From: a virus
Taxonomy: Duplodnaviria > Heunggongvirae > Uroviricota > Caudoviricetes
Direction: 5' to 3' (one strand)
Length of the DNA: 47,550 nucleotides
IMG/VR virus record: IMGVR_UViG_2534681704_000008
Part shown: positions 25,771-32,104 of the stretch, in pieces
How the letters are laid out: each line of letters begins with the position of its first letter
Numbering within the stretch: the first letter of the stretch is position 1
The notes under the pieces: model-generated
The model's database searches: none
Told to the model about the DNA's origin: nothing
The model's input: only the letters and a program-made list of their open reading frames with translations
Made by a program: the position numbers and the translations under genes

Positions 25771-26454
25771 TTATTTTGTTTGTTTTAATGCTTTTTTCTC
25801 AGCCGCTAAAGCGGTAATGGCGTCAATTCGTAGTTGCCTTTCATGCTTTTCAACATACCACTCTTGAATTAGAAGCTCGAGGAGGCCTATCAGCATCTCA
25901 GCTTCGTCTGGATCGACATCAACAATGACATTGATATCATTTTCCATATGAGCACCAATGTTGCCAATATTCCGAACAGCATCGATGGCTTTCCAAACAT
26001 TCGATTCAATCTGCCCCTCGATGGCTTTTATTTCGTCAACAAGTCTCGCGGGCTTAACATTCCAGACGTTCCTAATCATCCCTTGAAGACACCTGCGTGA
26101 CAAAGTTGCAGAAGCTTTAGGTGATAGATTTTTGATTAACACTGCCTCTTTATAGTCATCTAAAATCGGCTTCGGCACATAATCAGGAAACTGTTTATAA
26201 ATTCCATTTGGCCTATTAACCCACTGCTCGATTAAGTTGACCGGTCTGTAATAGCCACCTTCAAGTTTCGCAGTAGATACCTTCGATACGTATGTGAATT
26301 CTTTACATTCTTTGTTCGGGCAAACGTTGACCGAAGATTCAAAAGCCAAAACCCCGTACTTAGTGTCAGCTGCCACAGCGAAACTGTTATTTTTTTTCTC
26401 AATTGACTCGAAAACTGACAAGCGCCCACAAAAAGGGCATTCCCAAGATGACAT
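25771..26454 (-). CDS. Zinc-ribbon plus DUF4145-like (HEPN-superfamily) protein; candidate abortive-infection/defence gene
   Basis: 227 aa from MSSWECPFCG (ATG 26454, AAGGAGG RBS); CxxC...CxxxC ribbon; C-terminal AVRNIGNIGAH resembling the DUF4145/HEPN R...H signature; low GC; own AT-rich promoter and terminator. Confidence 0.55.
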   Translation of the reverse strand: MSSWECPFCGRLSVFESIEKKNNSFAVAADTKYGVLAFESSVNVCPNKECKEFTYVSKVSTAKLEGGYYRPVNLIEQWVNRPNGIYKQFPDYVPKPILDDYKEAVLIKNLSPKASATLSRRCLQGMIRNVWNVKPARLVDEIKAIEGQIESNVWKAIDAVRNIGNIGAHMENDINVIVDVDPDEAEMLIGLLELLIQEWYVEKHERQLRIDAITALAAEKKALKQTK

Positions 26455-26518: not shown

Positions 26519-26980
26519 TTAATTCAAGCATTGCTCTTTAATGTAGTCCTGCAGATAGCCGACCTGCTTCGTCACTGTGACGATTCGCTCTCTGAGGGTG
26601 AAATAATCCCGTTCAGCGGAGTCAGTAAGTCTGGGGCCGGAAGCATCGCCCACGCCGCTGGCGCCGGCCGTTCCGTTCGCGGGACATCTGGCGTTGACGT
26701 GCAGCCCACACTTACCAGTGCTAACGCAACGCTGCAGATCTTCAAGCTGAGATTTCGCATCAGCTAATTCCTTAATGTATTTGGCATCCAGCGCAGCGAC
26801 ATCTCGCTGCCGGGTCTGCATGTCTTTGATGGTGGAGTTCGCCAGGCTGAGTTTCTCAGTGGCCTTATCGCGCTGTTCTTTGTAGTTGATGGCGTTGTCA
26901 CGGTAATGGTTAATCGCCCAGGCCATGGAAACCAGCAGGCAGATAACGACAGCGCAGATGATGGCTGTTGATCGGCTCAT
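26519..26980 (-). CDS. Rz: Rz-like i-spanin
   Basis: [24 protein letters not shown]-terminal TM anchor then coiled-coil periplasmic domain; ATGA overlap with the endolysin stop. Confidence 0.8.
26572..26760 (-). CDS. Rz1: Rz1-like o-spanin lipoprotein embedded in the +1 frame of Rz
   Basis: 62 aa, LVSVGC lipobox, Pro-rich, C-terminal [11 protein letters not shown] matches lambda Rz1. Confidence 0.75.
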
Positions 26981-27471
26981 TTCTGGCCCCACTCGCAAAC
27001 TTCACGCTCAATCTCGCGCCGGGTGATAAGCCCCTTCCACTGTTTGCCACCGGCAAACGTCCAGCGCTGCAGTTCTTTGCATGCCCCCGGCACGTCTCCG
27101 GCGTTCAGCTTCTTCAGCAGTGTGGAGCTGGCAAAAGCACCAGAGCCAACGTTATAGGTGAAGGAGTAAAGTGCGGCACGCGTAGGCTCAGGGATGCGAA
27201 CCTTGATCAGCGGGTCGATGGCGTTTGCCACCTTCCGCAGATCTGCCTTAAGCAGGTTGTCACACTCTTTGTCGGTGTAGCGGTGACCGCGGCGAATGTC
27301 GGATCCGGTGTGCCCATCGCAAACAGTCCAGACGCCGACCACATCCTGATAGGCGTAATAGCGCCGCCCTTCCAGCCCATCCGCATTGCCAAGCATTACT
27401 GCAGCAATGGTGATTGCTCCGGATCCGCCAACAATGGCACCCACCAGCTTATTCCTGAGTGTCGGGTTCAT
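26977..27471 (-). CDS. SAR endolysin (phage lysozyme, GH24)
   Basis: 164 aa; N-terminal Gly/Ala-rich SAR segment ([20 protein letters not shown]); catalytic E-x8-D-x5-T ([16 protein letters not shown]). Confidence 0.8.
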
Positions 27472-27673
27472 CTCGGCTCCTGCTGCGGCGGTTGTCTTCG
27501 CGGATCTTGAAATAGAGATTCGTCAGATACGTCAGTACGGCAATGATGATACCCACCAGCACGCCGATAGCGTTCCACTGCTCGGGGCTGTAGGCATTAA
27601 GCATGCCGTTTAGGATGCTCCCGGCTGAAGCGCCATAGGCAGCACCAGTGGTTATTTTTTCCATGCGATACAT
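27449..27673 (-). CDS. Class II holin (pinholin, S21-like) with dual-start motif
   Basis: 74 aa starting MYRMEK (two in-frame Met); C-terminus [17 protein letters not shown] matches S21. Confidence 0.8.
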
Positions 27674-27774
27674 GCTCTCACCTCGCGTAGTTAGCGGGTG
27701 CTGTGTGTGTTTGAAAAGGGTCAGGCCCTCGGGACGATTTAACAAGTAGGCGTGTCGATGATGGTTCCCGGAGC

Positions 27775-27804
27775 CTGAAATAAAAAACCCGGCGACAGGC
27801 CGGG
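27775..27804 (-). terminator. Intrinsic terminator in the late leader (tR'-like)
   Basis: cccggc-gacag-gccggg hairpin followed on the minus strand by ttttttatttcag, about 100 nt upstream of the holin start. Confidence 0.55.
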
Positions 27805-28079
27805 AAGATGAGGGTAAGGCAATGTCGGCTCTCTGGCCGAAGGGTCCCAGGTAGTGGGTTCTGTGTGTGGCGATCGGACTCGAACCGATACTCAGGTTCA
27901 GCATTAGCATCATGCCTGCCCTGCCGGATAACCGGTTGATGCGTTACTCTACCCATCTAACCCGCAAGCTGGAATTGAGTTACACCACAACGGATAGAGC
28001 ACTGAGCATTTCGTTGGCGCTCCATGCTGCTGCGTGGGCTGGGTTATGAGCCCTTCACGCCAATGCTCTTTCCTGTTGT

Positions 28080-28112
28080 GCAGATACAAAAAAGGCCGCT
28101 TTTGTGCGGCCT
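28080..28112 (-). terminator. Intrinsic terminator after the late cargo gene
   Basis: aggccgc-ttttgt-gcggcct hairpin followed on the minus strand by tttttgtatc. Confidence 0.55.
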
Positions 28113-28128
28113 CAGTTCATTCATAATA

Positions 28129-28485
28129 CTAATTATCTGGATTCCAGATGGTTTCATCCAACTCAAAAACTAGACACTTTTTAGATTTATCCAGATAAAA
28201 TTCTGCAGTTCTTGCTTCTTGATCTAAATAATCCCTATCTTTACAACCTTCGAAATACTGAACATCAACCTCAAACTCAAAAGAGCCAGCATTATCGCCT
28301 TTTTCATACCAGACTTCGGTCACCTCAAAGCTGTCTGATTGATAGCTATATCGTGGATCGCCACGATAATCAGCCATGACATAACCTTCAAAATAATGTG
28401 AATGCTGCTTTATAAGATCCCGAAATGCTGCTTCTGTATTTGAAAAATCATCAGGAATATAGATCTCATATCTTTTGGTGCCCAT
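28129..28485 (-). CDS. Hypothetical acidic protein; cargo gene between Q and the lysis cassette
   Basis: 118 aa from MGTKRYEIYIPDDF (ATG 28485; the longer ORF-track start at 28536 is GTG); AT-rich; flanked by terminators. Confidence 0.5.
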   Translation of the reverse strand: MGTKRYEIYIPDDFSNTEAAFRDLIKQHSHYFEGYVMADYRGDPRYSYQSDSFEVTEVWYEKGDNAGSFEFEVDVQYFEGCKDRDYLDQEARTAEFYLDKSKKCLVFELDETIWNPDN

Positions 28486-28509
28486 TGGGAAAACCTTAGA
28501 GTTTGATAT

Positions 28510-28555
28510 TAGAGCAAATATTAAAACAAAAGCCACCGACTTTAACCAGTGGCTT
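28510..28555 (-). terminator. Intrinsic terminator directly downstream of Q
   Basis: aagccac-N12-gtggctt hairpin followed on the minus strand by ttgttttaatattt. Confidence 0.5.
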
Positions 28556-28622
28556 AAAAGGCTTTTCCTGACACTAAATAGAACAATGGCACAATATCAG
28601 ATTCACATGAAATGTATGCTAT

Positions 28623-29312
28623 TTAATTGACTTTTGCAATACCCTGCTGCGAAAAAGTCGCCTTTTGTTGCGATCGTGTTCTCACAGCGCAGAGAAGAGA
28701 GTCGCTATCAAGCCGCTTAAAGATGGTGCACATGGCCCGCCAGTAATCGGCGTAGTTATGGCACCAGTTATCAGGTTTAACGCCGCACAGGGCCGCCAGG
28801 TCCTGATGCTGATATACATCCTTGCCTGCCAGCTCCGCTTTGACGTCCTGCGCCGCCAGCCAGATAAGTTTCTTCAGGCGCTCCATCGTCTTGCCGGCCA
28901 CCTTCTTCGTGCCGAGTTGCTCACGGAACTCTGCCCATGCCCACTGAGTTATCGCCACCTGATACTCGAAGCGGATGTTCTCGCTGTAGTTCCACAACAG
29001 CCATGCTTTCTGGTGGTCTTCAAGCGACAGGACGGCGCGGCGCCACGATGCGGTCACGAACTCAACCGGGCCCACCAGCGCAATGGATGAACCCTTGGCG
29101 CGTGACTGGCTGCCGCTCATCGGCGGGCCGTCCGGGTTGACCATGCGCTGCTTATCCTTGTCGAATACCTTTTTCCGGCCCCGACTGCGCGCCGTCGCGG
29201 TGAATTGCGCATTCTCGGCGAAGGCTACCAACTGCCCTTTCGTCGACCCGCTCAGATCTGCGGTCGCCACAATGAGCTGCTGACGTACGTATTCCAGTTG
29301 CTGACTGTTCAT
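28623..29312 (-). CDS. Late antitermination protein Q (assigned by position and size)
   Basis: 229 aa, located between rusA and the late/lysis region, Cys-containing C-terminus. Confidence 0.55.
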   Translation of the reverse strand: MNSQQLEYVRQQLIVATADLSGSTKGQLVAFAENAQFTATARSRGRKKVFDKDKQRMVNPDGPPMSGSQSRAKGSSIALVGPVEFVTASWRRAVLSLEDHQKAWLLWNYSENIRFEYQVAITQWAWAEFREQLGTKKVAGKTMERLKKLIWLAAQDVKAELAGKDVYQHQDLAALCGVKPDNWCHNYADYWRAMCTIFKRLDSDSLLCAVRTRSQQKATFSQQGIAKVN

Positions 29313-31910: not shown

Positions 31911-32104
31911 TGGGCGGCCTCCTGCATGGCTGGGTCTGCTGGTAAAGTCATGTGCGGCACTTCAATCAGTTCTGCCCGAGCATCAGCCGTGTTCAGCGCC
32001 ATTAATGCGACGATCCGCTTCTGCTCAGCATCCATTCGTAAAGCTACTGTCTTGCCGTTCATATTGAAGAACACCGCAACGTTTTTGATATCTTCGATTT
32101 TCAT
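31907..32104 (-). CDS. Small hypothetical protein
   Basis: 65 aa from MKIEDIKNV (GGGGGAGGG RBS); ATGA-type overlaps with neighbours. Confidence 0.5.
   Translation of the reverse strand: MKIEDIKNVAVFFNMNGKTVALRMDAEQKRIVALMALNTADARAELIEVPHMTLPADPAMQEAAQ

Follow-up and report, generated by a model that had tools for sequence, protein, structure and literature searches.

The window analyzed here is the whole 47,550-nucleotide (nt) stretch of the Caudoviricetes record IMGVR_UViG_2534681704_000008, and its subject is the interval between the gene for the Q antiterminator and the holin gene. In this lambdoid enterobacterial prophage, the interval probably serves as a Q-dependent leader to the late operon, and it is composed of three exchangeable modules: a promoter and terminator next to Q, a cargo cassette encoding a protein of 118 amino acids (aa), and a transfer RNA (tRNA) slot. 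The leader, the slot for an extra gene (moron) and the tRNA slot are all of known kinds. The new element is the RNA that fills the tRNA slot, a 124-nt tRNA-like structure without an anticodon which, on the evidence of covariation in its relatives, is very probably under selection as a structured RNA. Leader, cargo and lysis genes all lie on the minus strand (Table 1).

In a preliminary description of this DNA, a T arm and acceptor on the minus strand were taken for the remnant of a tRNA, and a perfect hairpin, ccggataaccgg, was listed separately as a feature of the leader. Both are present, but the T arm and acceptor are no remnant, being part of an intact, covarying RNA, and the hairpin (27924-27935, CCGG-UUAU-CCGG) is one helix of that same RNA. 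The 5' strand of the acceptor, UGUGGUG (27989..27983), pairs over 7 bp with CGCCACA (27872..27866), and the element is therefore closed and complete. Between the acceptor strands are a D-like arm (ACUC AAUU ... GGGUA GAGU) with GG in its loop and with an insert hairpin that reads CCCG-CUUG-CGGG in the family and CCAG-CUUG-CGGG in the window; the extra hairpin just mentioned, whose loops have 3-5 nt in relatives (CUGGC-AUA-GCCAG, CCUG-GAAA-CAGG and others); a long arm of 4+5 bp with the 7-nt loop GAUGCUA; and the T arm AUCGGUUCGAGUCCGAU (27889..27873), which folds as AUCGG-UUCGAGU-CCGAU.

Judged as a tRNA, the element has a 7-bp acceptor and a 5-bp T stem with a TPsiCRANY-type loop, and both stems covary. 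It lacks an anticodon loop. Positions 33 and 37 of the sole 7-nt loop, GAUGCUA, are A and U, respectively; where the anticodon arm would be, there is a hairpin with loops of 3-5 nt, GAAA among them; and the RNA is 124 nt long, compared with ~70-95 nt for a tRNA. Without a loop carrying U33 and a purine at 37, with tetraloops at the anticodon arm and at this length, the RNA cannot serve as a decoder. The tRNA and RNA-family searches, a check proposed in the preliminary description, do not recognize the element. ARAGORN was silent at its default setting, at an 80% threshold and with the intron options, and gave implausible calls alone at 50-60%. Its transfer-messenger RNA (tmRNA) mode was silent even at a lowered threshold, and no tmRNA match was obtained from Rfam. 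No Rfam 15 family matched within 27680-28090 at gathering thresholds or at E<=10. A bacterial Y RNA (YrlA-like) was likewise rejected, with no Rfam match at E<=10 and with Q, lysis, terminase and portal genes as the neighbors when linkage to rsr/rtc was judged. No specific parental tRNA emerged from blastn against 42 distinct tRNAs of related loci, which matched the generic T loop alone.

The case for selection on the RNA is made by its relatives. Pattern scans returned ~80 copies in 75 viral and 6 bacterial contigs, of which ~60 lie between Q and the lysis genes and ~14 between terL and the portal gene. All six copies on bacterial contigs are in prophages (three of Enterobacter and one each of Yersinia alsatica, Rahnella and Atlantibacter). 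In an RNAalifold alignment of 38 distinct homologues with 36 pairs, 98.8% of 1368 cells are paired, versus 28-42% when the partners are slid by 1-3 columns. Cells in which both sides have changed number 77, versus at most 4 after sliding. Compensatory changes occur at 8 pairs (one in the acceptor, two in the extra hairpin, two in the long arm and three in the T arm), and none of 500 shuffles reached the observed covariation. The pattern used for collection included the D-like arm and its insert, and the covariation is informative for the acceptor, extra hairpin, long arm and T arm alone. The same alignment was used to build a covariance model, R1, with which the window copy scores 149.9 bits and the divergent copies L186 and L192 score 102.6 bits. 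Genuine tRNAs also align with R1, weakly and over their full length (18.8 and 14.6 bits), as would suit an architecture derived from tRNA. Elsewhere in the window, R1 gives one weak full-length match at 31950-32080 on the minus strand (11.4 bits, E 0.84), probably noise.

The second genomic context is represented by Cronobacter phage ES2, where a copy 90% identical to that of the window lies between terL and portal and is followed by its own terminator. The ES2 acceptor is UGAGGCG/CGCCUCA (UGUGGUG/CGCCACA in the window) and its T stem is GCUGG/CCAGC (AUCGG/CCGAU in the window), and all of these differences are compensated. The similarity between the two copies starts and stops at the acceptor stem. 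The RNA travels as a whole between two places in late operons. In ES2 (L131 2499-2660) and ~14 similar loci, the RNA directly follows the terL stop codon, and an intrinsic terminator, a small open reading frame (ORF) and portal come after it. This layout puts a terminator inside what is expected to be a single late operon. Rfam 15 and the literature that could be searched yielded no description of the 124-nt RNA, which may be among the thousands of unnamed viral candidates in the 10,006-candidate catalogue of PMC10690425.

The position that the RNA occupies is a tRNA slot, bounded downstream by a conserved 3' trailer. Conservation in the leader is highest in the trailer, from which a 20-mer, CCTTCGGCCAGAGAGCCGAC, was traced to at least 120 IMG/VR contigs. 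In 55 of 124 such loci, ARAGORN places one to four genuine tRNAs immediately before the trailer, with the identities Arg-UCU, Thr-UGU, Asn-GUU, Phe, Gly-UCC and Met/Ile-CAU, and in 28 loci the last of them, with its CCA end, abuts the trailer start AACCCACUACC. At 13 of 87 loci, an array of genuine tRNAs closes with the 124-nt RNA itself. In the window, no genuine tRNA was found by ARAGORN, and the T arm and acceptor occupy the exact place of the relatives' tRNAs. Such a location has precedent in the P22-like phages L and Sf6, whose late operon begins with tRNA genes and for which excision of the tRNAs from the late mRNA was left open (PMC8022706).

A shorter, tRNA-sized element of ~77 nt, GUUGUGGUG...GCCGGAUAGCAGCGCCGGCCACCACAAACCA, fills the same slot in 38 loci (L001 2640-2716, L003 and others). 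Also written GUGGUG...CACCACAAACCA, it ends in ACCA, has the same flanks as the 124-nt RNA and is not called by ARAGORN. One copy alone scores with R1, at a weak 13.6 bits, and the element is on that account a doubtful member of the 124-nt family; it may be a gene or debris.

The trailer consists, in order, of AACCCACUACCUGGG, a small hairpin (CGGC-CAGAGA-GCCG), the unpaired stretch CAUUGCC-UUACCCUCA and the terminator T3. The hairpin is compensated to CGGU...ACCG in Klebsiella phages and the T3 stem exists in several compensated versions, while the stretch between them is conserved as unpaired. Upstream of the trailer there may be real tRNAs, either of the tRNA-like variants or no more than a terminator, and downstream of it stand lysis cassettes of at least three different kinds. 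An ORF of 92 aa runs through it (27956..27678); its reading frame is not conserved, because tRNAs or other DNA replace its upstream half in relatives.

Table 1. Features of the late leader and adjacent genes, with positions in the window
Feature	Position	Strand	Details
Q antiterminator gene, 229 aa	28623..29312	-	Pfam PF06323, E 3.4e-81; phrog_304 'anti-termination protein Q-like', E 3e-99
Candidate promoter PR'	28604..28639	-	-35 TTGCAA (28639-28634), 17-nt spacer, -10 TACATT (28616-28611)
-10-like element cTGATATT (CTGATATT) in the initial transcribed region	28593..28600	-	CTGATAT invariant in 100 loci
Terminator T1	28520..28555 (stem 28555..28530)	-	11 bp, -13.7 kcal/mol, then UUUUGUUUU
ORF118, acidic 14-kDa protein, 118 aa	28129..28485	-	phrog_13663 (unknown function), E 3.7e-44
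Terminator T2, 3' end of the ORF118 cassette	28084..28113 (stem 28113..28092)	-	8 bp with 6 GC pairs, -15.3 kcal/mol, UUUUUU
Conserved non-coding spacer, T2 to tRNA-like RNA	27990..28083	-	Kept in L001 (moron-less) and other relatives
tRNA-like RNA without anticodon, 124 nt	27866..27989	-	Covariation; second context; model R1, 149.9 bits
Conserved 3' trailer AACCCACUACCUGGG...CGGCCAGAGAGCCG...CAUUGCCUUACCCUCA, ending in T3	27779..27865	-	At least 120 contigs; covariation
Terminator T3	stem 27804..27788	-	6 bp, -11.8 kcal/mol, UUUUUU
Holin, phage-21 S type, first lysis gene	27449..27673	-	PF04971, E 1.5e-25; dual start MYRM, ATGs at 27673 and 27664
Lysozyme	26977..27471	-	Pfam
Rz	26519..26980	-	Pfam

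At the upstream end of the interval, the -35 and -10 elements of the candidate late promoter overlap the last codons of Q, a protein for which a sequence search of solved structures returned no relative. Here TTGCAAAA and the block GCATATATTTCATGTAAATCTGATAT are near-invariant across 100 related loci (69 distinct sequences), and the Q codons beside this footprint and the DNA farther downstream are variable in the same loci. We read the footprint as PR' together with a conserved initial transcribed region, and transcription would start near 28604. In the PR' regions of lambda and phage 82, a -10-like element gives sigma70-dependent pausing and Q loading. By analogy, the -10-like element of the window is a candidate for the same role.

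Sense-strand terminators were called by a consensus scan of the region, and hairpin energies were computed separately. The scan gave 5 terminator-like sites, versus 2.3 +/- 1.7 in shuffled sequence, an excess that is weak when taken alone. T1, T2 and T3 are all intergenic, sense-oriented and conserved or covarying in relatives. T1 lies ~50-85 nt downstream of the promoter and would therefore be the promoter-proximal equivalent of tR', ending a PR' transcript of ~83 nt. A tR'-like role had been assigned to a terminator about 100 nt before the holin. The hairpin and T-run are there, as T3 (its end is ~109 nt from the holin ATG at 27673), but the role belongs to T1; T3 is the end of the conserved tRNA-slot trailer, not a promoter-proximal terminator. 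An Rfam Trp-leader match at 28086-28166 proved to be merely terminator T2. The spacer of ~95 nt between T2 and the tRNA-like RNA has no Rfam or tRNA match, solely very-low-threshold ARAGORN calls. With a footprinted promoter at the end of Q and three sense terminators before the holin, the earlier suggestion of a Q-dependent late leader holds up as a reading. The whole region looks like an ordinary lambdoid late leader, for which dependence on Q is the natural interpretation.

Between T1 and T2 lies ORF118. That an acidic protein gene is bracketed by intrinsic terminators in this slot, as the preliminary description had it, is confirmed by T1, T2 and an isoelectric point (pI) of 4.35 (27 D+E versus 13 K+R). 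The product is predicted to be a small cytoplasmic alpha+beta protein. Its gene has a GC content of 0.37, versus 0.55-0.60 in the flanks. Homology with moron-less relatives breaks near 28592 and returns past T2, and the inserted cassette is therefore T1-ORF118-T2. This AT-rich cassette has replaced the ancestral tR'. The slot is empty of such a gene in Escherichia coli HL15 (L001), holds a 79-aa ORF with its own terminator bracket in L002 and a real tRNA in L003. Across 80 related loci the Q-holin interval ranges from ~100 to 1300 nt and carries at least 10 unrelated small-ORF families. In the Shiga toxin (Stx) 1 phage YYZ-2008, stx sits in the equivalent interval. The claim of a cargo gene in this slot is thus borne out by its absence from L001, by the different small ORFs of other relatives and by the location of stx. 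At locus L009, which has a different Q, the same layout of promoter, terminator, ORF and terminator recurs: a terminator equivalent to T1 lies between that Q and ORF117, and a similar T2-like terminator, AGGCCGCCACATAGCGGCCTTTTT, follows ORF117.

The ORF118 family is rare. Homologues of the protein, which the preliminary description had left to be looked for, do exist: 10 among 5.8e9 proteins and 40 cluster representatives among 1.8e9, with 0 matches in 50,697 phage records. They lie between Q and holin at every place examined, next to a Q of the PF06323 type, of the PF03589 (lambda) type or in the form of an unannotated Q-sized protein, and next to holins of PF04971, PF16931/PF05449 or PF16083. 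Searches of Pfam, NCBIfam, PADLOC and PDB returned no match, and no likeness to toxins or to any annotated family was seen. As a moron, ORF118 is an extra gene of deviant composition between genes that are adjacent in relatives. Of the regulatory ends of its own that a moron should have, the terminator T2 is present, with a similar one in L009, and the promoter scan was empty. Since no own promoter was found, Q-dependent late expression, like that of stx, is the most economical proposal. We would call ORF118 a late-expressed accessory protein and commit ourselves no further.

Further cargo is seen in the same prophage family. The Klebsiella aerogenes prophage L004, whose ORF118 is 97% identical, carries a bacteriocin of the pyocin-S/cloacin type with an immunity gene in the nin region upstream of Q (L004 1-2000), a further insertion of this sort. 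In the window itself, an AT-rich gene (GC ~0.40) downstream of Rz, at 25771-26454 on the minus strand, has as its product a DUF4145 protein of 227 aa (PF13643, E 1.3e-9), for which the PADLOC model of the single-gene anti-phage defense PD-T7-4 also gives a match (E 1.4e-12). It looks like a second cargo gene, in a post-lysis moron slot.

We propose that the three modules work as follows. The first has PR' over the end of Q, with T1 after it; in lysogens, without Q, transcripts would stop at T1 as an RNA of ~83 nt. In the second, T1-ORF118-T2, the protein would be made when Q-modified polymerase passes T1. The third is the tRNA slot with the 124-nt RNA, the trailer and T3. Upon induction, Q would carry polymerase past T1, T2 and T3 into the genes for the holin, the endolysin with its putative signal-anchor-release (SAR) domain and the spanin. 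The 124-nt RNA would be excised from the late transcript by host tRNA-processing enzymes, with the stacked acceptor and T arm as the substrate: the 5' end of the RNA would be made by RNase P cleavage at the start of the acceptor and its 3' end by endo- and exonuclease trimming, leaving a stable, L-shaped, non-decoding RNA. The same cleavage would free the trailer as an 80-nt, terminator-ended RNA. The released RNA may act as a tRNA mimic or decoy, or the cleavage may serve as punctuation of the late transcript. Phage RNAs other than tRNAs (M3 RNA and C4 RNA) and tRNA-like structures are known substrates of RNase P (PMC11143913).

Several observations count against this proposal. The window PR' agrees with the consensus at 8 of 12 positions, versus 9 of 12 in relatives with TATATT, and it was not listed by the promoter scan because 8 of 12 falls below the scan threshold. 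From T1 to the ATG of ORF118 the consensus scan gave no promoter-like site, and a weak promoter could escape it. The D-like arm and insert belonged to the search pattern, and their invariance is therefore uninformative. An A.G mismatch, absent from all other copies, lies in the D-insert hairpin of the window RNA, which could thus be slightly impaired; the window RNA also encodes no CCA.

As for what the RNA does, we can offer a rather low-confidence suggestion: it would be the founder of a previously undescribed class of anticodon-less tRNA mimics of enterobacterial temperate phages, made late, excised by the host and acting by way of the elbow and acceptor as decoy, inhibitor or cofactor, with the trailer as a co-released regulator. 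Possible targets are host factors that act on tRNA, such as an anticodon-nuclease defense, an enzyme of tRNA modification or repair, or a sensor of tRNA.

A real possibility, though one we would not bet on, is that the trailer is the key product, a processed, Hfq-type small RNA of 80 nt like PasA, and that the tRNA-like RNA is a processing signal alone. The trailer is indeed the commoner of the two, in at least 120 contigs and after a tRNA, a tRNA-like RNA or a terminator, and a conserved single-stranded stretch stands beside its U-tailed terminator. Holin-lysozyme operons are immediately preceded by the small RNAs PasA, PasC and PasD, of which PasA matures by cleavage (preprint 10.64898/2026.05.13.724894), and this favors the explanation. 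The layout of PasA fits in position and terminator: the trailer would give an RNA of ~80 nt, ended by a terminator, directly upstream of a holin, with a 5' boundary defined by the tRNA as that of PasA is by cleavage. It differs in sequence. Comparison of the trailer by blastn with the esterase-holin interval of YYZ-2008, the PasA locus, gave chance matches alone (E >= 1). A trailer-centered explanation also fails to account for the conservation of the RNA between terL and portal, where there is no trailer.

Alternatively, the RNA and trailer could act in cis, tuning holin translation or the timing of lysis, or providing antitermination like that of HK022 put, with no RNA excised. We consider this unlikely. 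The position directly upstream of the lysis genes would suit it, as would the terminator found within 10-90 nt after the RNA in every context and the CCUC-containing unpaired stretch of the trailer, which resembles an anti-Shine-Dalgarno sequence. However, the lysis cassettes behind RNA and trailer are of at least three unrelated kinds, and terL-portal is a further site of the RNA. Pairing of the trailer with the holin start is no better than chance (-17.6 kcal/mol versus a shuffled mean of -21.2, with 420 of 500 shuffles equal or better), and the candidate role as an anti-Shine-Dalgarno partner was rejected. An RNA antiterminator would moreover be needless, because the Q protein is present.

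The view taken in the preliminary description, that of a decaying tRNA pseudogene, debris of the slot without function, is improbable. It has on its side the silence of ARAGORN and Rfam, the location in the relatives' real-tRNA place, a long-arm loop without U33, the lack of an encoded CCA and the private mismatch of the window copy. Against it, 98.8% of the 36 pairs are kept in 38 copies and 8 are compensated, including pairs in two helices alien to tRNA, and several genera and two genomic contexts share a 124-nt unit with the same boundaries. Debris would not keep insertions and covary, and the pseudogene is disfavored for that reason.

The T-arm/acceptor portion of tRNA genes is a common target of integrases. 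An element acting as DNA, whether an attachment (att) or recombination site for an integrase or satellite or a linker for module exchange, nevertheless seems the least probable of these explanations: the attP sites of P22 and L do lie inside tRNA-like sequence (PMC8022706), some satellites are known to insert in the late genes of prophages (PMC10111431), and the element and trailer stand at mosaic junctions, but neither context has an integrase nearby, no interrupted copies or direct repeats were seen, and compensatory changes that keep pairing over sequence point to selection on RNA.

Downstream of the leader, the lysis cassette (26977-27673) looks like a pinholin/SAR-endolysin pair of the phage-21 type. 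The N terminus of the lysozyme is rich in Gly and Ala, as in a SAR domain. Out of frame within Rz, a 62-aa ORF (26572-26760, minus strand) has the lipobox-like sequence LVSVGC and a proline-rich tail, and is probably the Rz1 outer-membrane spanin.

Set beside the PR'-tR' late leader of lambda, the proposed Q-dependent leader has Q directly upstream, a candidate promoter overlapping the end of Q, a terminator within ~85 nt and lysis genes behind terminators. Unlike lambda, it has a Q of the PF06323 type and three successive terminators in place of one. Short RNAs from PR' to a terminator include lambda 6S and the StxS of Stx phages (PMC7547250). Among Q-holin morons (stx; Juhala/Hendrix), ORF118 is typical in being inserted, deviant in composition, equipped with its own terminator and placed in the stx slot. 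It differs from them in having no detected promoter of its own and no similarity to toxins.

Stx phages carry tRNA genes, ileZ-argN-argO, at the 5' end of the late operon. The late-operon tRNA genes of phage L (Asn, Leu) and Sf6 (Asn, Thr) resemble the 124-nt RNA, which can itself close a tRNA array, in position, acceptor, UUCGAGU T loop and the GG of the D-like loop (PMC8022706). The window RNA departs from them by its 124 nt, two extra hairpins, no loop with U33 and a purine at 37, and no CCA.

To our knowledge, the function of the species 1 and 2 RNAs of T4 is still unknown. In PMC11143913, which cites Moen, Seidman and McClain 1978, they are stable tRNA-like RNAs from the tRNA clusters of T-even phages. 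Like these, and like the M3 RNA of phi80 and the C4 RNAs of P1 and P7, the window RNA is phage-encoded and non-decoding, and it would be co-transcribed with tRNAs or mRNAs and matured by host tRNA-processing enzymes. It belongs to a different phage group, that of temperate lambdoid phages, and has another architecture; no sequence relation is to be expected. The t-elements of plant mitochondria (PMC1920247), non-decoding tRNA-like structures within longer transcripts, at which cleavage by RNase P and RNase Z produces mRNA ends, provide a model of how the window RNA could work. They belong to another domain of life and are usually degenerate, whereas the window RNA is strongly conserved, which suggests that the RNA itself matters.

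The Q-holin interval readily collects foreign genes, as the small-ORF families (at least 10) of the 80 related loci attest. Within it, ORF118 represents a rare, position-locked family of the late leader, with lysis timing and phage-host conflict as candidate roles. The covariance model R1 now allows annotation of an RNA that is invisible to tRNA finders and Rfam. If the RNA is a mimic or decoy, an RNA-based player would be added to the phage tRNAs that face host tRNA-targeting defenses; if it is a processing signal alone, it would be the bacterial-virus counterpart of the mitochondrial t-elements.

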